64,000 bases of DNA from a bacterium UBP8_UBA817. Its GTDB lineage: Bacteria; Margulisbacteria; Marinamargulisbacteria; SXXA01; SICP01. Positions 11,793 to 38,205 of this stretch are shown piece by piece. Positions within the stretch are counted from its first letter, which is position 1. Each line of letters opens with the position of its first letter. The stretch spans positions 19,231 through 83,230 of the forward strand of contig CAMDGG010000002.1 of NCBI GenBank assembly GCA_945898045.1, written 5' to 3'. A model generated the notes under the pieces. That model did no database searches. It had not been told where the DNA came from and saw only the letters and a list, made by a program, of their open reading frames with translations. Both the position numbers and the translations under genes were made by a program.

Positions 11793-13027
11793 GCCTAGAA
11801 GGCGGACACATTCTATCTGGAAACGTAAAAGCCTCCGGGGCTAAAAATGCAGCACTCCCTTTACTTGCGGCTACTATTTTGATGGACGGCGAATGTCTCC
11901 TAAGTAACGTCCCCGACCTACACGACATCAACACCATGATCAAAATGCTCAACGCCCTCAATGTACGCGCAGAGTACTGCCCAAACAATCAAATCAAAAT
12001 TACCAACACCAAAAAAGTACGCCATATCGCCCCTTACGATTTGGTCACTGCCATGCGCGCTTCATTTTTTGTAGCTGGCCCTCTGCTTGCCAAAACCGGC
12101 TTTGCAAAAGTACCGCTTCCAGGCGGATGCAGCATCGGCTCTCGCCCGATTGATCTTCACCTTAAAGGCTTCAAGGCCCTCGGCGCCAAAGTCAGTATCG
12201 AACACGGATTTGTCGAATTACAATGCAAACAACTCATCGGCACTCGATTTTACATGGACTTCCCCTCTGTAGGTGCCACCGAAAACATCATGATGGCGGC
12301 AACTCTTGCTCAAGGACAAACCATTATTGAAAACGTCGCCCAAGAACCAGAAATTACCGACCTCGGTAACTTCCTCATTGCCGCTGGTGCATCCATCACA
12401 GGACTCGGCACCAGCACCATCATTGTCAACGGAACAAAAACACTCACGGGAACTCACCATCGCGTTATCCCAGACAGAATCGAAGCCGGAACGCTACTCA
12501 TCGCGGGAGCCATCACAAAAGGAGACGTTACCGTCTTCGATGCCATCCCCGACCACAACGAACCCCTTCTACAAAAACTCAAAGAATGTGGTCTTGGCCT
12601 CGAAATTCATCCCGATAGAGTCCGTATTTTTTATCAAGATCAGCCTACTGCAGTCGATATCGAAACACTTCCGTTTCCGGGATTCCCCACAGACATGCAA
12701 GCCCAAATGATGGCACTCCTAACCGTCGCGAAAGGCACCAGCATTATCACCGAATCTATTTTCGAGAACCGTTTTATGCATGCAGATGAACTCATGCGAA
12801 TGGGCGCAAAAATCAAACTCAACAACAGAAGCGCACTCGTAACAGGCGTCCCCGCACTATCCGGAGCCGAAGTCAAAATAACCGATCTCAGAGCCGGCGC
12901 AGCACTCATACTCGCAGGACTAGCCGCAGAAGGTATCACCACCGTACACGGCCTCAAACACCTCCGAAGAGGCTACGACAATCTCCCCGAAAAACTACAA
13001 TCTCTTGGCGCAAAAATTTTAGGATGA
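11780..13027 (+). CDS. murA: UDP-N-acetylglucosamine 1-carboxyvinyltransferase
   Basis: Typical MurA N-terminus and length, GGCSIGSRPIDLH, and an active-site Cys region. Confidence 0.95.
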   Translation: MPRLSLEGGHILSGNVKASGAKNAALPLLAATILMDGECLLSNVPDLHDINTMIKMLNALNVRAEYCPNNQIKITNTKKVRHIAPYDLVTAMRASFFVAGPLLAKTGFAKVPLPGGCSIGSRPIDLHLKGFKALGAKVSIEHGFVELQCKQLIGTRFYMDFPSVGATENIMMAATLAQGQTIIENVAQEPEITDLGNFLIAAGASITGLGTSTIIVNGTKTLTGTHHRVIPDRIEAGTLLIAGAITKGDVTVFDAIPDHNEPLLQKLKECGLGLEIHPDRVRIFYQDQPTAVDIETLPFPGFPTDMQAQMMALLTVAKGTSIITESIFENRFMHADELMRMGAKIKLNNRSALVTGVPALSGAEVKITDLRAGAALILAGLAAEGITTVHGLKHLRRGYDNLPEKLQSLGAKILG

Positions 13028-13037
13028 GTTTAGGCTA

Positions 13038-13883
13038 ATGACACAGAAAATAACCTTCACAAAAATGCACGGACTCGGCAACGATTTTATTGTGATCGAT
13101 GCGCTTACTCACACACTTGATGTCGCATACTACACAGACCTAGCCCTCCAACTCTGCGACCGACACACAGGCATTGGGGGAGACGGAATCGTCTTTGTCT
13201 TACCCTCTGACAAAGCCCATTTCAAAATGCGCATAATCAATAGTGACGGCAGCGAACCCGAAATGTGCGGAAACGGACTCCGCTGTTTTGCACAATTCGT
13301 CTATCAAAATAAACTGATCAATACCCCCACGTTCCAAGTCGAAACCTTGGCGGGTATCAAAGAACCCAGCGTTTTAGAAAACGGCCTAATCAAAGTAGAC
13401 ATGGGAATTCCCATCCTAGAAAGAAGCCAAATTCCTATGTTAGGAACTCCCAAAAATACCCCCGTCATCAACATGCCCATCACAGCCCACCACAGCAATT
13501 TCCTCATGACCGGCGTCAATATGGGAAACCCCCATGCCGTCATTTTTGTAGACGATCTTAAGAAGATTGACCTCGACACTCTAGGCACAAAATTTGAGCA
13601 TCACCCCTTATTCCCAGAACGCATCAATACCGAATTCGTCAAAATCATCAACAAACAGGAAGCCCGCATGATCGTATGGGAACGCGGCGCAGGTAAAACC
13701 CTCGCGTGTGGAACAGGCGCTTGCGCCGTCCTCGTCGCAGGTGTTCTTACCGACAAACTAGAGAGAACTGCAACCATCCATCTCCCGGGAGGACCTTTAG
13801 AAATTAACTGGGACGCCAACACCAATCACGTCATCATGACGGGCCCCGCCACCCACGTTTTTGACGGAACAATTGACCTCTAA
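13038..13883 (+). CDS. dapF: Diaminopimelate epimerase
   Basis: FTKMHGLGNDF and the two Cys motifs MCGNG and ACGTGACA. Confidence 0.95.
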   Translation: MTQKITFTKMHGLGNDFIVIDALTHTLDVAYYTDLALQLCDRHTGIGGDGIVFVLPSDKAHFKMRIINSDGSEPEMCGNGLRCFAQFVYQNKLINTPTFQVETLAGIKEPSVLENGLIKVDMGIPILERSQIPMLGTPKNTPVINMPITAHHSNFLMTGVNMGNPHAVIFVDDLKKIDLDTLGTKFEHHPLFPERINTEFVKIINKQEARMIVWERGAGKTLACGTGACAVLVAGVLTDKLERTATIHLPGGPLEINWDANTNHVIMTGPATHVFDGTIDL

Positions 13884-28548: not shown

Positions 28549-28953
28549 TGGGGGTGTATTTGGCTTCGACGGGATAGATCTAAGATATGAGACGCGAGCC
28601 GAGGAGATGCCAGGCCTCGTAAAAAGGCATAAAAAAAATAGTTAACACAACTAAATTAGGTAAAACTCTAGCTTTTGATTTCGCACCAGCGAGGTTGGCA
28701 GCCTAGAAACCAAGCCACAGCCGCTTAATTAAGCAGCTGCGCCGTCCTCAAAGTCGTTGACGCTTTGAAAGACGCAACCAGTCAACTAGCCACTAGGTTT
28801 TGATCTCGGCCTAAGTAGCGAAATCAAGAAATCTCGCGATTAAACGCCTCGTTTTCAAGACGCTTAATCGTTAAATCAACTGAAAACTACGCTCGTAGTT
28901 GCCTCTTATCAAAGCTATTTCGGACACCGGTTCGATTCCGGTCACCTCCACCA
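28549..28953 (+). ncRNA. ssrA: tmRNA (SsrA)
   Basis: 5' end GGGGGTGTATTTGGCTTCGACGGG. 3' tRNA-like end GGACACCGGTTCGATTCCGGTCACCTCCACCA with a G3:U70 wobble pair in the acceptor stem. Internal tag reading frame GCT TTT GAT TTC GCA CCA GCG AGG TTG GCA GCC TAG, which would encode AFDFAPARLAA*. Confidence 0.9.
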
Positions 28954-28962
28954 TAATCCAAA

Positions 28963-29814
28963 CTAGCCCAAGATATTTTCTTGTTGATTTTGCAATTTCA
29001 AAATAGCTTTCGCATTTAATGCCGTAACCACTTTTTTACCGGTCTTAGCCTCCAATTCCTTCCGGGCCACCTTCGCAACATTTCCACCTTGTTTCGCCAC
29101 GATTTTACTCTCTTCAAAATCCTTTGGATTGACTACCGCCGAAATATCTTTGGTGGATGCTTCTGCAAGCATATTTAAAATCAGTTCGGTGTTCGTCATG
29201 TTATCCCGGAGATTTTCCTTCTTCAAACCTTTCAGTGCCCTATAGTCTTTAGTAGTTTTATCGGCCCATGCTTTGGTTATAATATCGGTGAGCGTTGCAA
29301 ACTGAACACCCTCCTTCAGACCTCGTTTTTTCCATTCATTTGTAAGTTCTTTACGTATCTCAATACTTTTCAGCCGTTGATTAATCCAGCTTTCAGAATA
29401 CCCCAATTGCAAATACTGCTCTAAAGCACGATCGATACTCAGTTCTGGATCTTGCATCTCATCTAGTCTTTCAGACGCTACTTGTGCAAGCCATAGTTTA
29501 AAGGGCTCAGCTTTGGGCGATGGGATAGATTGTATAAGGCGGAAAAGTTGTTCTGTGTCGGCAACATCGGTCATCCGCATTTTGCCATCAGGGGCCTTCA
29601 TTTTCAAACCGTTACAATTTGTAACGGTTTCATTCCCCTCATCCTTTAATCGCTTTTTTAACACCCGCCAATACACCTGAGGATTTGGGCTTTCTGTTAA
29701 TACGAAAATCACATCCACAACGGACAAATACCATTTTTCCTGATCAGCATCCCATAGCGTTCTTACTTTTTTGTCTTCAAATATTTTTATATCGTTTTCT
29801 TTTTTCATATTCAA
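28963..29814 (-). CDS. DinD-like (DNA-damage-inducible protein D family) protein with an N-terminal Bro-N-type domain
   Basis: IKIFEDKKVRTLWDADQEKWYLSVVDVIFVLT (Bro-N-like). KGLKKENLRDNMTNTELILNMLAEAST parallels E. coli DinD RKGLKKNQKILDHMGSTELAANLF. Size 283 aa versus 274 aa for DinD. Confidence 0.7.
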   Translation of the reverse strand: MNMKKENDIKIFEDKKVRTLWDADQEKWYLSVVDVIFVLTESPNPQVYWRVLKKRLKDEGNETVTNCNGLKMKAPDGKMRMTDVADTEQLFRLIQSIPSPKAEPFKLWLAQVASERLDEMQDPELSIDRALEQYLQLGYSESWINQRLKSIEIRKELTNEWKKRGLKEGVQFATLTDIITKAWADKTTKDYRALKGLKKENLRDNMTNTELILNMLAEASTKDISAVVNPKDFEESKIVAKQGGNVAKVARKELEAKTGKKVVTALNAKAILKLQNQQENILG

Positions 29815-30828
29815 TTACAAATTCCTTAACAGTTCATCAAAATCACTACTACTATTTTGAATTTGCTCCAAATGAAATAAATCATATTCTTTCTCCGCCA
29901 ACGCAATAGCTACATCATGAGAAACCTTTCCGCTATCTTGTAATATATCCTGCTCATTAAATTTCAAAAAAGAATCCATCTTTTCTGCCCAATCATTCAT
30001 CGTCATCACCTGACGATTTTGAGCCTGAAATTCTGCAAAATCCAGATACATCGTCACAATGCGATTAAGCTGATCTAATTCACTAGCCGTCAAATAATTT
30101 TTAGCGATGCCCACATCCGCTTTTCGTATCATACCCTTCGGCGAATTTTTCCAATTCGTGAGCCCCATATTTTCTTTTTCACGATCTACACGATCATAAA
30201 TTAGCTCAGCAGCCGTTTGCCCCGTAATAGCAAAATGCAATTTATTTTGAACCGTCGCAAAAAACTGCTGCGTTATTTCATGGTTCGGGTCATAGTCGGA
30301 ACTACACTTGGCATAAATATCCGTAATCTTCTGATAAAACCGCCGTTCACTAGACCGAACATCACGTATTCTCGCCAACTGCTCGTCAAAATAGTCTTTT
30401 CCAAAAGGTTGATTAGGATTTTTAAGGCGCTCATCATCCATCGTAAATCCTTTGATAATATATTCCTTGAGCCGCTCCGTTGCCCATATACGAAACAAAG
30501 TAGCATTCCGAGAATTTACCCGATACCCAACCGAAATAATGGCATCGAGATTGTAGCATTCTATTTGCCTAGTAACAGTTCTCAAGCCCTCTTGTTGAAC
30601 TTGTGCAAAATTTGCACAAGTTGAATCCCTAGCCAATTCTTCGGCTAAATAAATATTTTTTAGATGCTTGGTCACCACACTTCTGTCTACAGCAAACAAA
30701 GTTGCAATCTGAGACTGAGTTAGCCATAAAGTTTCATTATAAAGATGAATTTCTACATTCACCTTTCCATTCGGAGTTGTATAAAATAAAAAATTTTTGA
30801 TCACACCATAAGAACTAATATTTGTCAT
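29815..30828 (-). CDS. RhuM-family protein (virulence protein RhuM / PF13310-like)
   Basis: YNLDAIISVGYRVNS...FRIWATERLKEYIIKGFTMDDERLK is the hallmark RhuM block. 337 aa, as in Salmonella RhuM. Confidence 0.75.
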   Translation of the reverse strand: MTNISSYGVIKNFLFYTTPNGKVNVEIHLYNETLWLTQSQIATLFAVDRSVVTKHLKNIYLAEELARDSTCANFAQVQQEGLRTVTRQIECYNLDAIISVGYRVNSRNATLFRIWATERLKEYIIKGFTMDDERLKNPNQPFGKDYFDEQLARIRDVRSSERRFYQKITDIYAKCSSDYDPNHEITQQFFATVQNKLHFAITGQTAAELIYDRVDREKENMGLTNWKNSPKGMIRKADVGIAKNYLTASELDQLNRIVTMYLDFAEFQAQNRQVMTMNDWAEKMDSFLKFNEQDILQDSGKVSHDVAIALAEKEYDLFHLEQIQNSSSDFDELLRNL

Positions 30829-31940
30829 AAAATCATCAAGCCACGATGAATTTTATTACCAGTCAGCGTTTCAGAAATATCACTTAATCCGGTCTTAAAA
30901 TCCATTTCTAAATACTCAAATACACTAATCGCACCTGGGCCCAACAAAGATTCAAAACGTTTCTTCACCTGACCAGAATTATCGGGATTATAAACCAAAA
31001 ATTTTCTCAAGAGCCTATCCCCAGCTGTACCTAATCCAAACAAATGTTTAAAAAATGAATCTGTTTCTGGGAGCGAAAATCCAATAACAACTATATATTC
31101 AGCTTTCCCCAATTCATCTGCAGCTTTTTTCCAAATAGTAGACAAAGAATTGTGATAACCCGACTTATTCCATGTAGGCGGAACAATAAAAGACGTAGGG
31201 CTTTGCTTCACAGAACGTTCACTAAAATTATTGGTTAATTTTTCACTAAGAATCAAAGGTCCGTTTCGTCCGATATTATCCCAACTATTAAAATCTTTTT
31301 TGGCATCACTTAAAAAATCTGCCACCTGATATACCTTCACCTCAGATTTTTGACTTACCCAATTCAAAGAACCATGAAGTTTAAATAAATTACAAAATTT
31401 AGACTTTTTAATATTTGAATCAAACCCATAATAAGGAGTTAAATCTGAATTCTGTAAAGCAATATCAAGAGCAACATCATAATTAAAAGTCAATATGGAT
31501 GATTCAAAGTTATACTTATTAAGGTTCTTTAATAATTCCACAAATCCACCGTAACTCCCAGAAGAGGAAAATACACCCGAATTATCTATAGAAAATAAAA
31601 TTGATTGTTCAAGAGTTGAGACTATAACTCTCACAAGAGAGGCTATCAGCTTCTTAATATCTTTCTGTGGATAATCTGGCAACTTGTTGATTAATTGAGA
31701 AAACTCAAAAAGAGTATAAATAGACTCAATATTATTCAAATCCAGTAGTGATTTAGAATGAATTTTTTGAAGCTTTTGGATAGCAAAAAAAACTTGTTCA
31801 AATTCTATCCTGTACTTTTCCACTTTTCCTTCTAACAATAAATCTCTAGATACATTCAAAAAATCTTTCATGAGAGGCGCACCACAATCTTGAGATGCTC
31901 CCGCACCTAAAATAAAAACTATTTTCTTAGTTGCTGACAT
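30825..31940 (-). CDS. SIR2-like (SIR2_2/DUF4020-type) domain protein with a ~170 aa uncharacterised C-terminal region. Candidate NAD+-depleting defence effector.
   Basis: KKIVFILGAGASQDCGAPLMKDF (GAGxS motif), LTFNYDVALDIAL, FKLHGSLNW. Overlaps both neighbours (ATGA at 30825-30828; 14 nt overlap at 31927-31940). Confidence 0.7.
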   Translation of the reverse strand: MSATKKIVFILGAGASQDCGAPLMKDFLNVSRDLLLEGKVEKYRIEFEQVFFAIQKLQKIHSKSLLDLNNIESIYTLFEFSQLINKLPDYPQKDIKKLIASLVRVIVSTLEQSILFSIDNSGVFSSSGSYGGFVELLKNLNKYNFESSILTFNYDVALDIALQNSDLTPYYGFDSNIKKSKFCNLFKLHGSLNWVSQKSEVKVYQVADFLSDAKKDFNSWDNIGRNGPLILSEKLTNNFSERSVKQSPTSFIVPPTWNKSGYHNSLSTIWKKAADELGKAEYIVVIGFSLPETDSFFKHLFGLGTAGDRLLRKFLVYNPDNSGQVKKRFESLLGPGAISVFEYLEMDFKTGLSDISETLTGNKIHRGLMIL

Positions 31941-32307
31941 TTTTAATCCCCCCTAGCAAAAAATACGGCGAAATGAATCTGAGTAATTGTATAGCCTCAT
32001 AAGAATTAACCCGATAGCCAACGGCAATGATGGCATCAAGATTATAGAAATTGGTTTGGTAGGTTTTTCCGTCTTCGGCAGTATGCGCAAAAATTGCACT
32101 AACTGAATCTCCGCTTAATTCTTCCTCTGAAAAGATGTTTTTAAGGTGCTTTGTGATAACAGTACGATCAACGCCAAACAACTCGGCCATCTTTTTCTGA
32201 GACAACCAAATCGTTTCATCCTGAAAAACTACCTCAACCTTAACCTCTCCCTTTGGAGAGGTATACATCAAAAACTGAGATTCAACAGGCAGTAAATCTT
32301 TATCCAA
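31927..32307 (-). pseudogene. Truncated RhuM-family N-terminal domain paralog (126 aa). It either reads into or was replaced by the SIR2-like gene.
   Basis: About 60% identical to the N-terminus of the 29815-30828 protein (FLMYTSPKGEVKVEV...YNLDAIIAVGYRVNS) and lacks the C-terminal two-thirds. Confidence 0.6.
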
Positions 32308-32395: not shown

Positions 32396-33178
32396 TTACT
32401 CTTCCTCATGAGACCCAGCTGGCACAAGCCCCGTCCCCAAAACATACGTTCCGGTTAAATAGGGATACACCAACGGGGCAAAATAGAGCGCTTTTGCTAT
32501 GCCTTCTTGATTAAATGCTTTGGGCTTACTCCCAAATCCAAACCCCACATGAAACGCTATATCAGGCACATCCGCATATTCACGTCGGTTGTGTGAAACA
32601 GGCGATCGTATATAAGACAATGTTAATTTAGTATCCAAGGTAACAAAATAAATATCGTTATCCCAAACCAGGCGCTCATAATTAAACTGTATCGTTGGCC
32701 CCCCCAAATAAAACCCCGTCAAGCCCTTTTGAAAGAAAAGGGGACGCCCTGCTATTTGTACATCGGGATGTGCATAGGCAACCCCAAGTCCAAACCTAAA
32801 CCGATCATCCCCATACCGCTTCCCAAAATTGTAATACAACAAATTATATCCATCACTAATACTTAAATAAGTCACAATATCATTGGTATTAGCCAAATAA
32901 ACTTTATGGTGAATTAATTCAAATCCCTGCCCATTTTCTCCATGCCAATCTTCTAGTCGAAAAATCCACCAGTGAGAATCTGAAAATGATTTATTTTGAT
33001 AAACTGCATTAATAGATTGATCCGGTAAATCTTCTAATTTTATTGTTAAGCGATTAGGAAGACTCATCGATCCGCCCATAAACGTAGACAAGTGCCAACC
33101 ATCTTGGTTCTCAGAAAAAACACTTCCAGAAATCAAGAAAAATAACGCCAAAATAATCCCTCGCAATTGCAACCTCAT
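32396..33178 (-). CDS. Hypothetical outer-membrane or secreted beta-rich protein
   Basis: Signal peptide MRLQLRGIILALFFLISGSVFS; aromatic- and Gly-rich beta-strand pattern. Confidence 0.4.
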   Translation of the reverse strand: MRLQLRGIILALFFLISGSVFSENQDGWHLSTFMGGSMSLPNRLTIKLEDLPDQSINAVYQNKSFSDSHWWIFRLEDWHGENGQGFELIHHKVYLANTNDIVTYLSISDGYNLLYYNFGKRYGDDRFRFGLGVAYAHPDVQIAGRPLFFQKGLTGFYLGGPTIQFNYERLVWDNDIYFVTLDTKLTLSYIRSPVSHNRREYADVPDIAFHVGFGFGSKPKAFNQEGIAKALYFAPLVYPYLTGTYVLGTGLVPAGSHEEE

Positions 33179-33191
33179 ACATTACTCCTTA

Positions 33192-34055
33192 TCAAATTTT
33201 ATTAAGTTCCAGCCAACGGTCTACTTTATGTAAATACCGCGTCATTAAAAGTGAAATCCCCCGAGGTTCATTACCATTTCCATGAACCAAAACCACGCTG
33301 CCATTCTTAGGAACTTCACCCTTCGCAAGCCAGGCATCACTACCCAACGCAATTAAGTGCAAGTCACGCAACTTTACCTTTAAAATATCAGAGGAAATCA
33401 GTCCTGGAAATCGAAAAAAAACAGACGGCACAATACCTACCGCCAACATCTGCTGCTCATTTTTCAAAACCTCGTCTTCCAAGACAATACCCGAACTTCG
33501 CATAAAATCAGGCTTCACCGGATGGCTCAAAGAATGATTCACCCACGTCACACGCACTCTTCCCTCCGACGCCTGACGCTTAAGCCACACCAAATCTTCC
33601 GCATGTTGAGACAACCACACCCCAGTCACAGCTATCGCCATAGGAATAGGCGCTTCAGAACTCGGCAACTGCGTAATCACCTCCCGCACAAAAGGTTTCT
33701 TACTCGGACACAAATCCACAGTCAAAAATAATCCATTCACCGAAGACCCCGAATGCCGAACTTCACCAGAAGAAACCAATCGCATAAAACGGGACTGCGA
33801 AACACGTTTCTCAGACACTTTTTTAGACAAAAACAGATCAATCTCTGTCGCCATTTTCACCTCTGTCTCGAGAGTATCTGGCGAGACAATTAAATATTCA
33901 GGATGTCCATCTTGCTCGAACGATCTCAGCGCAATGTGAAGCTGACCATTGGCATCGTTAAATGGAATGAAGATAGGTTTATAGCTAGAAATCTGAGAAG
34001 CAAAAGAAATCCCGCAAAAGAATATAGAAATTACACAGACGCTTCTAAAAATCAT
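33192..34055 (-). CDS. Secreted CE4/NodB-type polysaccharide deacetylase-like protein with a degenerate motif 1
   Basis: NodB motifs: TVDLC (where TFDDG is expected), HSLSHP, FRFPG, LGSDAWL and VVLVHGN. Signal peptide. Confidence 0.5.
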   Translation of the reverse strand: MIFRSVCVISIFFCGISFASQISSYKPIFIPFNDANGQLHIALRSFEQDGHPEYLIVSPDTLETEVKMATEIDLFLSKKVSEKRVSQSRFMRLVSSGEVRHSGSSVNGLFLTVDLCPSKKPFVREVITQLPSSEAPIPMAIAVTGVWLSQHAEDLVWLKRQASEGRVRVTWVNHSLSHPVKPDFMRSSGIVLEDEVLKNEQQMLAVGIVPSVFFRFPGLISSDILKVKLRDLHLIALGSDAWLAKGEVPKNGSVVLVHGNGNEPRGISLLMTRYLHKVDRWLELNKI

Positions 34056-34059
34056 CGAA

Positions 34060-35439
34060 TTACAACCGCATCATAAGCGCATCATATTCGATATGTGCTT
34101 TTTTTAATTCCAATGTGTACTTTAAGTTATCAATTTTGGCTTTTGTTAGATTCTGCTCACGAATATTCAAGATAAACATGTCGCTATCCCCATGTAGGAA
34201 TTTCTTTTGTTCTGCTACAACCATTTTTTGCGCAACTTCTATTTCTAAGTTGCTATTTTTGACGGTTTTTTCTGCCGTTAAAATACGTTCATGCACTATA
34301 GCCAAGTCTTGCTTGAGCTGATCAATAATCAGAGACGTTTTGAGCGACAGCTGTCGTTTCTTACTGTCTAGCGCATCTCGCTTTGCACCTTTTTCTCTAC
34401 GTTCGATGGGCGTTGAAATACTCAGCTTAACTTTGCCCTCATCCTGCAAACTACCACTTCCATTACCAGAATCCGAAGAATACTCATAACTTAAATCAAC
34501 CGCTGGCAAATTCTGATTTTCATACAACGCGATCTCATTTTGAAGTTGCTTTATCTGTGTGTCTAAATCAAAAAGAAAGGGATGGATATCAAGCAACTGG
34601 ACAATATCTTGCGTAGGTTGAATCGGGTAACGCAGTGCGTAATCTTGTGTATCAGGGATGGTGTAATGATTACACGACGTAACAAGTCCCTCTGGATCTC
34701 GCACATAAAGCGCTAACATGCGCTTCTGAATTTCTAAATCTCGATCTGCTTCCATTAATTGATTTTGACGTTGTAACAAATATTGCAAATTTTCAATGAG
34801 ATAAATGTCCGGCAAGTCCCCTTTTTTGACCCGCGCCTTAATGATCTCTTGGCGTTTATTGGCCAGCTCGTACAATCCAACATATTCCATTTTCAACTGA
34901 TACGCATAGATCCAAGTCCAATACTCTTTTGATGCTTTTTGCAGAACAGATTGCACAACAAAGCGCTGTTGTTGGTATTGGTTCACTAGATCTAGCTCTG
35001 CATTAGTCAAAGTGGTTCGCTTGGCATCTATCCAGCTATCACGTAGCACAGAGAGAGAAATGCCCAATCCAGTTTCTCCACGGCTTCGGGTGTTGAATTG
35101 GTCTTCATATGTCGGGAATGTCCCGCTTGATTGCCTATAGTGTCCATATACTTTTGCATTAGCAAAATAAAGTGGTTTTTCTATTGAGGCTTTGCCATAT
35201 TGACCCGTGTAATATCCTTCGGTTCGGCTGGCATTTTCGTATTTTATTTTTGTATCAAATTGTCCTGCAGCACTTTGTTGTTCGAAACGTCGTTGTTCAA
35301 TGGCTTCTGTAGCCGACAAAACGCTTGGAAAGTGTCTCATTACCGAGTCTTTCACATCCTTTTCGTATAATACAGTTTGTGCAGAAAGTGTTGAAATGCA
35401 TAGACAAACGATGATTAAAACAAAAAAAAGTGACTTCAT
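34060..35439 (-). CDS. TolC-family outer membrane efflux protein
   Basis: Signal peptide, two repeated coiled-coil/beta-barrel halves, 459 aa. Confidence 0.75.
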   Translation of the reverse strand: MKSLFFVLIIVCLCISTLSAQTVLYEKDVKDSVMRHFPSVLSATEAIEQRRFEQQSAAGQFDTKIKYENASRTEGYYTGQYGKASIEKPLYFANAKVYGHYRQSSGTFPTYEDQFNTRSRGETGLGISLSVLRDSWIDAKRTTLTNAELDLVNQYQQQRFVVQSVLQKASKEYWTWIYAYQLKMEYVGLYELANKRQEIIKARVKKGDLPDIYLIENLQYLLQRQNQLMEADRDLEIQKRMLALYVRDPEGLVTSCNHYTIPDTQDYALRYPIQPTQDIVQLLDIHPFLFDLDTQIKQLQNEIALYENQNLPAVDLSYEYSSDSGNGSGSLQDEGKVKLSISTPIERREKGAKRDALDSKKRQLSLKTSLIIDQLKQDLAIVHERILTAEKTVKNSNLEIEVAQKMVVAEQKKFLHGDSDMFILNIREQNLTKAKIDNLKYTLELKKAHIEYDALMMRL

Positions 35440-36539
35440 TTAAATTTTATCTTTTTTTTCACAACTTCTTTGTCGTCTGAATGGTGAGAAACCTCAGGCA
35501 AGGGTGGGAAATTATTAAGTTTTCGCCAGATTTCGTATCCCGTACTAACCTGATTAAGCAATACCCAACCAGACGCCTGTGCGCCTACACGCAAATATTG
35601 GGAATCTGGCCAAGCGTTATCTTCCTTATCCGGGATAACAATAATGCGTAATTTACCGTTTTCAGAAATAAATTGATCAACAATTTTTACGACGCCTCCG
35701 AATGTATTAATAGCAGTAGACGGCCAACCGCTAAATTGAATAGCGGGCCATCCTTCAAATTGCAACCGCACTTTTCTACCAGGGTAAACCAGACGCATAT
35801 CATTTGGATCAATATACATTTCTACAGCTGGCCGAACTAAAATAGGTACAAAAGTTGCAATAGACTGCCCCTCTTTAATGCGTGCAGACAAACTACTAAA
35901 TTGAGCAATATAAATAAATCCATCTTGTGGCGCCGTAATAATCTGTGTGTTTTGCCGAGACAATTTGACTTCGGCTTGCGCTAATTTAGCCGCAGATTCG
36001 GATTGTTTTGCGCGCACTTCTTCTAATTTTATTCTGGATTCTTCGAACGTTTTTCTTGAGCTAATTCCCTCTTCAAATAATTTCTTTTGCCGATTGAAAT
36101 TGAGTTGCGCCGTTTGTGTCACAATTGCCAGCGATTCATACTGTTCACGAAAAGAATCTCTTTCCTGAAGAATACGCTCTATTAATTCCGGGTCATTATC
36201 TAGAATCTCAACAAGTTTTTGGCCTTTTTTTACAGCTTGCCCATCTATGACGTACCACTCTTTTATGCGGCCACTCACCAGAGCCGTGATTTGTGTCTGC
36301 CGCTCATTGGGACTAAAAGCAATTAAACGACCTTTCCCATAGGAAGTTTGAAACCACGGGGTTAATACCGTAAATAAGCTAAGCAACAAAAAAATGATGA
36401 GCAAATACTTAATAGATTTCATATATGGCGGGCGTTCTGTATAGTCGTTTAACAATGAGAAATAACGCAGAGTGCTCGGCTCGAATTCGATATCATGGAT
36501 ATCTGGGAATTCTGACTTATGATTGGATGTATGCATCAT
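35436..36539 (-). CDS. HlyD-family membrane fusion (periplasmic adaptor) protein
   Basis: N-terminal transmembrane segment, long coiled-coil, HlyD-like lipoyl and beta-barrel regions. Translationally coupled to the tolC-like gene. Confidence 0.75.
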   Translation of the reverse strand: MMHTSNHKSEFPDIHDIEFEPSTLRYFSLLNDYTERPPYMKSIKYLLIIFLLLSLFTVLTPWFQTSYGKGRLIAFSPNERQTQITALVSGRIKEWYVIDGQAVKKGQKLVEILDNDPELIERILQERDSFREQYESLAIVTQTAQLNFNRQKKLFEEGISSRKTFEESRIKLEEVRAKQSESAAKLAQAEVKLSRQNTQIITAPQDGFIYIAQFSSLSARIKEGQSIATFVPILVRPAVEMYIDPNDMRLVYPGRKVRLQFEGWPAIQFSGWPSTAINTFGGVVKIVDQFISENGKLRIIVIPDKEDNAWPDSQYLRVGAQASGWVLLNQVSTGYEIWRKLNNFPPLPEVSHHSDDKEVVKKKIKFK

Positions 36540-38205
36540 AGGACTTCCTGTCTTCCAAGAGTTTTAATCCGGCTTGATCACATGCCATATAATGGTCAAA
36601 TAAGTAGGCATCATGATAGGTATTACTAAAGTAAATCAGGGTAATATCAGGGTTAGAGTCTAAGTGCGCAAAGAGTGCTTTGTTGTGAAGCGCCGCAAAG
36701 CTAATATGATGGTTCATCATAATGTATTTGGACTTATTGAGTATGGCTCGGCCTAACTTTAAGAGAACCAATTCTCGGTGGGTAAGAGGAGATCCATTAG
36801 AATCCAGCACCGTATCAACCCCATCTTCTAGTTGGGTAATCGTATCCATAATTCCCACTCGGGTCAGTATTTCTGTGATTTTAATCGTATCCGGATCTTC
36901 TAATCCATAAGATAGATATTCTTTGATACTCAGATTTAGAATCTCTGACTCGTCGATAATAGAAATACCTTGCCTATAATAATGGATATCGATGTCATCA
37001 AGCAGTTCATTATTAACACTAACCACACCTTTTTCCGGAGCATAGAATCCCATTAAGCTACCAATAAGAAGATTTTTATATTCTCTTTGGACTGTTGCAA
37101 TCAGTGTTCGAGATCCTTTTTTAAACGTGTGATTTATTTCTATCTCTTCATTAAAGAGAGCGAATTTAGCACCTTTATACGCTATCGTTTCTGGAACCAA
37201 AATCATGCGTCCCGTCATGTCTTGTTCTATATCAAATCGATAAAACGAGATCAATTTTTCACAAGACGCCTGTAAGTCATAAAAACTTCCCAGATAGGAA
37301 CCTGATTTTGCAAGATTTGCAAAGATAGATGAAAAAATAATTTCAGTGGCAACAAGTTGTCCCAACGACAATTGCCCATTGAGCACAAAATATCCAGAAA
37401 TAAACAATAAAATAGAGTTTCCTAAAACATATAACCCAAGAAGATAACAAATTTGTGAAAAGAGATGTTTAAAATGATTCTTTCGTGCATCGATATAATA
37501 ACCAGTAAGGGTATTCGACCGTTTGGTTGCGTAGTTTTTCATTTGTTTTGATTTAAATAAGAGATGATTTCTGCCCATATCCAACAACCAATCTGCGGTT
37601 TGATACTTTTGATCAGATTCGTCAATAGCATAGGCAATCGCTTGCTTCGAATGTCCTTTCCAGATTGCGTACAAAATGAGCAAAACAATACAATTGAAAA
37701 GTAAAAATACAGGATGATAAAACGAGGTCAGTATCACACCGGCTAAAATCTGAAGTGCCAGTGAATATCCACCGATCAGTACATAAGGAAGCGATTTATC
37801 AATTGAGATAATTTCAAAAAATTTCTGCATCAGAGTCGTTCTGTTGATGCCCTGCAATGCAGCATATTTGGCATAAACCACTCGGGTCGTCATCAACGCC
37901 ACAATGCGTGCAAAGAACCGTCTACGAAATACTTCCGCGATATATTCTTGAATGCCATACGACACCGCAGACAACGTTAAGATCACCAACAAAACAACCG
38001 ATACAGTAATAAGCCGCTGCAAGACCCCAACGTTGGCAATCGAGTTGATTAACGCCTGTATCGATAAAGGCAGTATAAGACTAAGTACCGTAACCACTGC
38101 ACCGTACACAAAAAGGAGAAAGTAATAGTTTTTTTCTGGGCCAAGAATAATACCCAGAACACTTTTATAGTTAATGAGAGATAATTTCTTCATTTTCAAA
38201 AGCAC
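36517..38205 (-). CDS. ABC-exporter-like protein (type I secretion HlyB-like transmembrane domain) with a fully degenerate, presumably non-catalytic nucleotide-binding domain
   Basis: Six-TM exporter transmembrane domain. NBD-like C-terminus in which Walker A, the signature motif (LTHRE where LSGGQ is expected), Walker B (IMMNHH where ILLDE is expected) and the H-loop are all lost. Confidence 0.6.
   Translation of the reverse strand: MLLKMKKLSLINYKSVLGIILGPEKNYYFLLFVYGAVVTVLSLILPLSIQALINSIANVGVLQRLITVSVVLLVILTLSAVSYGIQEYIAEVFRRRFFARIVALMTTRVVYAKYAALQGINRTTLMQKFFEIISIDKSLPYVLIGGYSLALQILAGVILTSFYHPVFLLFNCIVLLILYAIWKGHSKQAIAYAIDESDQKYQTADWLLDMGRNHLLFKSKQMKNYATKRSNTLTGYYIDARKNHFKHLFSQICYLLGLYVLGNSILLFISGYFVLNGQLSLGQLVATEIIFSSIFANLAKSGSYLGSFYDLQASCEKLISFYRFDIEQDMTGRMILVPETIAYKGAKFALFNEEIEINHTFKKGSRTLIATVQREYKNLLIGSLMGFYAPEKGVVSVNNELLDDIDIHYYRQGISIIDESEILNLSIKEYLSYGLEDPDTIKITEILTRVGIMDTITQLEDGVDTVLDSNGSPLTHRELVLLKLGRAILNKSKYIMMNHHISFAALHNKALFAHLDSNPDITLIYFSNTYHDAYLFDHYMACDQAGLKLLEDRKSYDAYIQS

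Follow-up and report, generated by a model that had tools for sequence, protein, structure and literature searches.

The minus-strand gene at 30825..31940 of the 64,000-nucleotide (nt) stretch analysed here (the window, from contig CAMDGG010000002.1 of the bacterium UBP8_UBA817, a member of the Margulisbacteria) encodes a stand-alone SIR2-like protein of 371 amino acids (aa). In this study, we found that the C-terminal half of this protein is the second half of the SIR2 catalytic fold and not a separate domain, and the structural evidence makes it very likely that the whole protein is one complete SIR2 domain. Judged by its sequence, the protein is a member of a large, uncharacterised, and widespread family of minimal SIR2 proteins. 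An earlier note on this DNA had recognized a SIR2-like protein with intact catalytic residues, which our alignments bear out, and had suggested that a SIR2 NADase part of ~200 aa may be followed by ~170 aa forming a new sensor domain, which now appears highly improbable. The best explanation, which we consider probable, is a self-contained single-domain enzyme that would cleave nicotinamide adenine dinucleotide (NAD+) and serve an accessory function, probably in defence.

The open reading frame (ORF) begins with ATG behind a G-rich ribosome-binding stretch, and translation places the ORF as well as the motifs FILGAGAS, NYD, and KLHGSLNW where the earlier note had put them. Conservation was assessed in an alignment of 43 close relatives (A1) and in a broad alignment of 71 sequences from many phyla (A5), in both of which the three motifs are invariant or nearly so, far beyond chance. 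Residues invariant in A1 include G12-S16, N153-Y154-D155, K187-W194, P254, P255, W257, K259, G287, S289, P291, and D294, and those invariant in A5 are N153, D155, K187, H189, G190, S191, W194, P255, G287, S289, and D294, with the FILGAGAS loop nearly invariant as well. The catalytic residues N153, D155, and H189, whose absence from an alignment would have spoken against a SIR2 enzyme, are thus all present and invariant. The gene and the elements of its product are as follows.

30825..31940, minus strand: stand-alone SIR2-like gene, 371 aa, one catalytic domain in which a helical subdomain and a degenerate zinc-ribbon insert accompany a Rossmann sheet, as judged from the ORF, family matches, AlphaFold2, and Foldseek.
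31893..31916, minus strand: FILGAGAS, aa 9-16, which follows strand 1 as the glycine-rich NAD-binding loop (translation; G12, A13, G14, A15, and S16 invariant in A1).
31515..31871, minus strand: helical subdomain, aa 24-142, with five helices and the family motif HSK..LDLNNIES (DSSP of the model).
31476..31484, minus strand: NYD, aa 153-155, the SIR2 N-x-D motif (translation; N153 and D155 invariant in 71 sequences).
31359..31382, minus strand: KLHGSLNW, aa 187-194, with catalytic His189 (translation; K187, H189, G190, S191, and W194 invariant in 71 sequences).
31191..31358, minus strand: variable insert, aa 195-250, at the putative position of the sirtuin zinc ribbon, with its Cys ligands lost here (CxxC counts in homologues, hhalign).
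31164..31187, minus strand: IVPPTWNK, aa 252-259, a strand and loop of the SIR2 domain that are conserved and where the earlier note had its unassigned domain begin (translation; P255 invariant, P254, W257, and K259 nearly invariant).
31059..31082, minus strand: GFSLPETD, aa 287-294, a G-x-S motif after a Rossmann strand and the counterpart of sirtuin GTS/GSS (translation; G287, S289, and D294 invariant in 71 sequences).
30981..30995, minus strand: VYNPD, aa 316-320, the Rossmann strand and loop that come next (translation; N318, P319, and D320 nearly invariant; model strand 313-317).

AlphaFold2, run with the family alignment, gave one compact model (pLDDT, the predicted local distance difference test, 88; pTM, the predicted template modelling score, 0.89), in which strands 5-11, 145-151, and 182-188 in the first half and strands 282-286, 313-317, and 341-344 in the second half are each flanked by helices. 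In this predicted structure, strands and helices follow the pattern of one six-stranded Rossmann sheet into which subdomains are inserted. When the model was compared with the PDB by Foldseek, the top 32 matches were all ~400-aa SIR2 subunits of SIR2-HerA/Nezha, aligned over ~400 columns, the best of them with an expectation value (E) of 1.7e-10 and a template modelling (TM) score of ~0.55. Lower-ranked matches were to the SIR2 of Avs5, KomBC, sirtuins, SPARSA, and DSR2, and among the top 50 every PDB match at E<=1e-3 is a SIR2 or sirtuin chain.

Sequence profiles point in the same direction. The family profile matches the HerA-associated SIR2 chains 8w9l (1.8e-14), 8yhx (2.8e-11), and 8j4u (1e-8), with the HSK..LDLNNIES motif aligned to the equivalent region of all three. 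A weak collinear alignment of the profile to 8yhx_G pairs VIYPTMLK...LIIIGYGFPD with viVPPtwnK...IfviGYSlPetD, so that IVPPTWNK is collinear with VIYPTMLK and GFSLPETD is aligned to IIGYGFPD. The Pfam SIR2_2 profile (PF13289) covers aa 148-209 of the window protein; in members with shorter inserts, its matches extend to profile position 93-124 of 141. Carried over through A5, these matches fall on residues 148 to 290-322 of the window protein and cover IVPPTWNK, GFSLPETD, and VYNPD, the match of locus L084 reaching residue 322. Four family members pass the SIR2_2 cut-off, namely L084 (36.4 bits), L038 (27.8), L087 (26.9), and P0004 (25.8). In addition, three distant members show weak, sub-threshold matches to PF02146, the canonical Pfam SIR2 family, at profile positions 89-176 of 180, which map to residues 173-290 of the window protein. 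Against the sirtuin Sir2Tm (sequence identical to 1yc5_A), hhalign found the family profile motif-for-motif collinear, with GFSLPETD aligned to LGSSL, yet with a probability of 2%.

The statement that the C-terminal half matches nothing recognisable holds at the level of sequence libraries, whereas the structure and the mapped SIR2_2 matches place this half within the SIR2 core. Pfam gave no match on the C-terminal piece alone, and PADLOC on six such pieces gave weak matches only (E 0.007-0.05), all to SIR2 models, those to full-length SIR2 models falling at positions ~211-261 of 343-345. The length of ~170 aa also needs correction: counted from SFIVPP (aa 249), the C-terminal part comprises 123 aa. 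The proposed check by structure prediction and Foldseek on this half spoke against a domain of its own: folded alone, the C-terminal 168 aa formed an alpha-beta-alpha-beta-alpha-beta-alpha half-sheet with a pTM of 0.56, and against the PDB this fold found generic Rossmann-like fragments only, the best with an E of 0.049. This search excludes that the piece is a known autonomous domain, although it does not by itself prove SIR2 identity.

A SIR2 NADase of ~200 aa with a new sensor domain at its C-terminus would fit the lack of a library assignment for the C-terminal half and the strongly conserved family-specific motifs in it, PPTWNK and LGPGA. However, the protein is modelled as one compact fold, it aligns over its full length with ~400-aa single-domain SIR2 chains, and SIR2_2 matches map to aa 148-322. 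Divided as such a fusion requires, neither part is complete: the 200-aa N-terminal piece holds three of the six Rossmann strands and lacks the G-x-S motif, and the C-terminal piece is a three-strand half-sheet with no significant structural neighbour. Moreover, this piece was not seen on another N-terminus, a search with the C-terminal half having returned only 8 short fragments. SIR2_2 domains span ~300-350 aa and contain long inserts, so that an additional C-terminal domain cannot be deduced from a Pfam match confined to the first half. We therefore return to the one-domain reading, in which N-terminal strands bearing GAGAS, NYD, and KLHGS and C-terminal strands bearing GFSLPETD, VYNPD, and aa 341-344 would form, with the helical subdomain and the variable insert, one catalytic domain of all 371 aa.

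Relatives of the protein are numerous, with 1282 at E<=1e-3 among clusters at 90% identity and, in an exhaustive phmmer search of 1.84 billion representatives at 50% identity, 4513 matches at E<=1e-3 and 780 at E<=1e-30. The best 150 matches are 335-411 aa long, and nearly all of them give a single alignment spanning residues ~6 to ~355; because these relatives align end to end, the length and both halves of the protein are conserved together. The family is sparse and scattered over many bacterial phyla and some archaea, the homologue loci spanning Pseudomonadota, Acidobacteriota, Chloroflexota, Planctomycetota, Nitrospirota, bacteria of the Candidate Phyla Radiation (CPR), two archaea, and others. 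PADLOC models for SIR2 and Aga_SIR2 match the window protein with an E of 3e-12 at best, mainly over aa 3-207. No dedicated model for a ~360-aa SIR2 family was found in Pfam, NCBIfam, or PADLOC 2.0, nor any description of a partnerless one in the literature searched. With hundreds of clusters at 50% identity, the family is large, and even the copy on a RefSeq plasmid is annotated as a hypothetical protein. One member (L041, 5989-7995) ends at about aa 308 and is continued in the same frame by a B12-binding/radical SAM enzyme (669 aa altogether); this joint is probably an assembly chimera or a rearrangement.

The most variable part of the family lies between KLHGSLNW and IVPPTWNK, where the insert ranges from 46 to 99 aa and where the pLDDT of the model is lowest. 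In A5, a CxxC directly follows the His motif in 33 of the 71 sequences (among them L019, L020, L021, L024, L025, L028, L029, L040, L052, L053, L085, and L086), and 28 of the 71 have a second Cys/His pair at the end of the insert. Among representatives at 50% identity, the first CxxC pair is present in 65 of 147 (~44%) and both pairs in 45 of 147. By hhalign, the Cys pairs of the family fall on the zinc ligands of Sir2Tm, with a weak score. Cys is absent from aa 195-250 of the window protein, and the zinc ligands are likewise lost in 117 of 120 close relatives. These comparisons suggest that the insert occupies the position of the sirtuin zinc ribbon, which would be putative in Cys-bearing members and degenerate in the branch of the window protein. 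It is noteworthy that Cys pairs are so frequent, because SIR2_2 proteins have been described as lacking a zinc module (PMC12700824). Finding the remnant of a zinc ribbon among SIR2_2-like proteins is relevant to the split that has been proposed between immune SIRim proteins and canonical sirtuins.

Compared with the known SIR2 systems, the protein lacks the defining features of every one named below and is most like the SIR2 of SIR2-HerA. The SIR2 subunit of SIR2-HerA/Nezha (8sub, 8j4u, 8uae, 8w9l, 8yhx) gave both the best structural match (E 1.7e-10) and the best profile match (1.8e-14 to 1e-8). It is of similar size (~380-430 aa), consists of a single SIR2 domain with a helical subdomain, and shares with the window protein an N-I-E helix motif, NYD, KLHGS-NW, a P-T-x-x-K strand, and a G-Y-S/G-x-P-D strand. 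In contrast, no HerA gene was found in the window or among the commonest families of 150 neighbours of homologues, the identity to these subunits is 15-18% at a TM of ~0.55, and the score with the SIR2_antiphage model is far below its cut-off of 500 bits. Furthermore, many members of the family have a Cys-rich insert, which is seen in none of the aligned stretches of the HerA-associated chains.

Other systems share less with the protein. DSR1 and DSR2 are also single-gene, partnerless SIR2 proteins with a related core (DSR2 8xfe, Foldseek E 3.6e-4), but they are ~1000 aa long with a large C-terminal sensor region, whereas the 371 aa of the window protein appear to be all catalytic domain. ThsA of Thoeris belongs to the same SIR2_2-type, NAD-processing group, and two homologues of the window protein have a ThsB-like TIR neighbour; however, the window protein has no SLOG or Macro domain, there is no ThsB in the window, and ThsA is not among the top 50 structural matches. 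For SPARSA, with its SIR2 associated with a short prokaryotic Argonaute (pAgo), the likeness is a weak PADLOC Aga_SIR2 match to the N-terminal half (1.7e-11), with no APAZ fusion and no pAgo neighbour, and Avs5 (SIR2-STAND) differs in its STAND NTPase and sensor repeats, which the window protein lacks. The vertebrate proteins FAM118A/B (SIRanc/SIRal) are partnerless, SIR2_2-type, ~350 aa long, and a precedent for self-assembly (PMC12700824; bioRxiv 10.1101/2024.09.18.613514). They are not close kin, being absent from the top 50 PDB matches, and have no zinc module, unlike this family with its frequent Cys pairs.

Canonical sirtuins such as Sir2Tm, Sir2Af2, and SIRT5 have the same order of motifs (GAGxS, N-x-D, H-G, the zinc-ribbon position, a strand, G-x-S, and a strand with N) and match with a Foldseek E of 5e-5 to 4e-4. 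On the other hand, the window protein has no PF02146 match and no zinc ligands, its helical subdomain is larger, and PPTWNK replaces the FGE loop. The main rival to an immune NADase, a regulatory sirtuin-like deacylase or ADP-ribosyltransferase with a housekeeping or stress role, draws on this kinship and is in our view unlikely, albeit not negligible. It would account for the CxxC...C/H pair at the zinc-ribbon position in ~44% of representatives, for the weak PF02146 matches of three distant members over profile positions 89-176, for the motifs collinear with Sir2Tm, and for the many ordinary neighbours of homologues, including synteny with polA in three loci; in canonical sirtuins, the zinc module is tied to deacetylation (PMC12700824). 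Yet the best matches in both sequence and structure are antiphage SIR2s and not sirtuins, the substrate loop FGE is replaced by PPTWNK, and the zinc ligands are lost in exactly the branch to which the window protein belongs (117 of 120 close relatives). The sparse scatter across phyla, the gammaproteobacterial kin of this Margulisbacteria-like gene, its low content of guanine plus cytosine (GC), and its island setting (see below) also argue against this rival.

No partner gene could be recognized. The earlier note had taken the protein to stand alone, and indeed no SLOG, HerA, TIR, STAND, or pAgo gene adjoins the SIR2 gene in the window, and the homologue loci share no partner. We collected 80 homologue loci from species-representative genomes and analysed the neighbours in 75 of them (150 immediate neighbours). 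When three genes per side were clustered, the largest cluster was one of integrases, present in 5 loci; among the immediate neighbours, the commonest Pfam family, PolA, was seen 3 times, in three syntenic loci (polA lies directly downstream in L048, L051, and L061). PADLOC found, in raw counts, ThsB-like TIR twice, together with SspH, PD-Lambda-1, IetA, and methyltransferases, none of them recurrent. A co-oriented gene lies within 50 nt on either side in about one quarter of the loci. The family truly has no partner gene. Of the homologues, one is located in a prophage-like region and one next to ParE/RHH. As a separate observation, the two ThsB-like TIR proteins recall Thoeris pairs. On the Cohnella herbarum plasmid NZ_CP051681.1 (L089, 5376-7080), a homologue with 40% identity, annotated in RefSeq as hypothetical, sits immediately downstream of a NUDIX gene, with two RelE/ParE toxin genes close by; the NUDIX enzyme and its putatively NAD-cleaving neighbour could be linked in function.

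The single-domain enzyme that we favour would bind NAD+ through the GAGAS, N-x-D, H-G-S, and G-x-S motifs and then cleave it, acting as an accessory effector, most likely in anti-phage abortive infection. We infer NADase chemistry, a defence role, and a mode of activation here, and as a whole the defence-NADase reading is put forward tentatively. An accessory or defence role draws on the low GC of the gene, its flanks matching PDC-S05 and PDC-S13, and the strain-variable tmRNA junction (see below), as well as on the scattered defence, toxin, and prophage-like surroundings of some homologues. The SIR2_2/SIRim clade has been reported to be enriched near defence systems (bioRxiv 10.1101/2024.09.18.613514). 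Lacking a sensor domain as well as a partner, the enzyme must be controlled by the SIR2 domain itself. One option would be self-assembly, as in the dodecamers of SIR2-HerA or the filaments of ThsA, Avs5, and FAM118B, the last three of which have been reported to be activated by assembly (PMC12700824); alternatively, a trigger may bind directly to the helical subdomain or the insert. If the protein is an active NADase, it would have the smallest architecture among SIR2 defence proteins, without sensor, HerA, TIR, pAgo, or STAND, and a bare catalytic domain raises the question of how it is kept silent and how it is triggered. It is conceivable, though we think it rather unlikely, that the family is a widespread, minimal one-protein immune system, in which a bare SIR2 would sense infection through its helical subdomain, its insert, or self-assembly and deplete NAD+; with its SIR2_2/SIRim-like scores and its frequent sirtuin-type zinc ribbon, it might also be an evolutionary bridge between immune SIR2s and canonical sirtuins.

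Several observations weigh against a defence enzyme of the SIR2 type. The TM to the nearest solved SIR2 is just ~0.55, the Pfam SIR2_2 score of the window protein (23.3 bits) is below the gathering cut-off of 24.5, and NCBIfam NF042942 (SIR2_antiphage) scores 29.1 bits, as compared to an equivalog cut-off of 500. Most immediate neighbours of homologues are ordinary genes, e.g., those for PolA, Hsp70, and MreB. Family matches number 0 in 50,697 phage records and just 2 in 72,556 plasmids, one of these being annotated as a hypothetical protein, and IMG/VR yields distant relatives only, which means that the family is not obviously borne by mobile elements. Finally, sequence alone cannot tell an NADase from a deacylase or an ADP-ribosyltransferase.

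In the window, the SIR2 gene is the second of four co-oriented genes arranged end to end (a RhuM fragment, SIR2, an intact RhuM gene, and Bro-N), consecutive genes overlapping by 14 nt, overlapping by 4 nt, and abutting with 0 nt between them, next to a transfer-messenger RNA (tmRNA) gene.

31927..32307, minus strand: truncated RhuM-family ORF, 126 aa, overlapping the SIR2 start by 14 nt (Pfam Virulence_RhuM positions 2-45 of 252 only; PADLOC PDC-S05).
29815..30828, minus strand: intact RhuM-family gene of 337 aa that overlaps the SIR2 stop by 4 nt at its start (Pfam PF13310, 384 bits; PADLOC PDC-S05, E 5e-147).
28963..29814, minus strand: Bro-N domain gene, 283 aa, the last of the four-gene block (PADLOC candidate PDC-S13).
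28550..28953, plus strand: tmRNA gene (ssrA), whose 3' CCACCA end is a strain-variable junction (ARAGORN; Rfam RF00023, 158 bits).

Up to about aa 105, the RhuM fragment matches the N-terminus of the intact RhuM at 56% identity; its remaining 21 residues are unrelated and are read from the sequence upstream of the SIR2 gene. Since the homology to RhuM breaks at this upstream sequence, the event by which the SIR2 gene was acquired appears to have severed the remainder of the RhuM gene. A fusion or frameshift of the 126-aa ORF with SIR2 was considered and rejected, since the two frames differ, the N-terminus of SIR2 is native to the family, and the ORF ends in 21 aa that bear no relation to RhuM. 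The kilobase with the SIR2 gene has the lowest GC in the window (0.32, as compared to ~0.43 for the window). The nearest relatives of the SIR2 protein are gammaproteobacterial, at ~45% identity, whereas the nearest named DnaB relatives, at 61-68% identity, are from Candidatus Margulisiibacteriota, which points to horizontal transfer. In one contig (L004), an extra RhuM fragment of 195 aa follows the Bro-N gene; together with the truncated paralogue, it suggests that RhuM genes are recombination targets at this locus.

The tmRNA 3' end lies 9 nt beyond the Bro-N stop, and the 3' end of tmRNA genes is a classic site of island integration. Metagenome contigs with the identical SIR2 protein share the same sequence up to the terminal CCACCA and then continue with differing tRNA-like 3' fragments; L001 (tmRNA 12988-13391), L002 (junction ~12990), and L004 (junction ~9342) diverge exactly after CCACCA, and the junction of L002 bears a 496-aa tyrosine integrase fused to an AAA-type region. 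A strain-variable junction of this kind looks like an island hotspot at ssrA. A search of the window for another copy of the tmRNA 3' end (the right attachment site, attR) found none at up to 3 mismatches, and scans for repeats, promoters, and terminators around the block gave nothing above chance. In the reading that we favour, the SIR2 gene is a low-GC cargo that removed the 3' part of a RhuM gene within a RhuM/Bro-N block set against the tmRNA 3' end.

Given this compact arrangement, SIR2 might instead work in a multi-gene module with RhuM and Bro-N, with, for example, the RhuM fragment or Bro-N as a DNA-binding sensor or regulator. The four genes overlap or abut in one orientation, RhuM and Bro-N match PDC-S05 and PDC-S13, which are PADLOC candidates for single-gene defence systems, and the block is identical in at least 4 metagenome contigs. 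We nevertheless regard such a module as improbable, since none of the 75 homologue loci has a RhuM or Bro-N neighbour and the 126-aa ORF looks like a truncation product, its RhuM homology ending at aa 105. Even less probable is that the gene is a decaying or inactive passenger, a SIR2 remnant without a zinc ribbon and without function in the host genome. The loss of zinc ligands and the truncated gene adjoining it in a rearranging island could be taken in this way, but the ORF is full-length and intact and keeps every family-invariant residue, the Cys-less branch (117 of 120 close clusters) is conserved over its full length at 42-48% identity, and the identical protein occurs in at least 5 samples. 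The self-contained SIR2 enzyme proposed above thus remains the preferred reading of this gene.

A few further features of the region were recorded. The tag peptide predicted by ARAGORN for the tmRNA is unusual (APSSKSLTL). Over the whole window (1-64000), the GC skew is strong and steady at about -0.25 and the adenine-thymine (AT) skew is about +0.2, and the DnaB relatives suggest an uncultured host akin to Candidatus Margulisiibacteriota. Upstream of the block, a run of genes on the same strand (32396-38205, minus) encodes proteins of 562 aa (ABC transporter-like), 367 aa (HlyD-like), 459 aa (without a recorded Pfam match), 287 aa (weakly polysaccharide-deacetylase-like), and 260 aa (with a weak Imm33-like match). 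This run, which could be a secretion or export operon, is kept in all contigs bearing the SIR2 gene.

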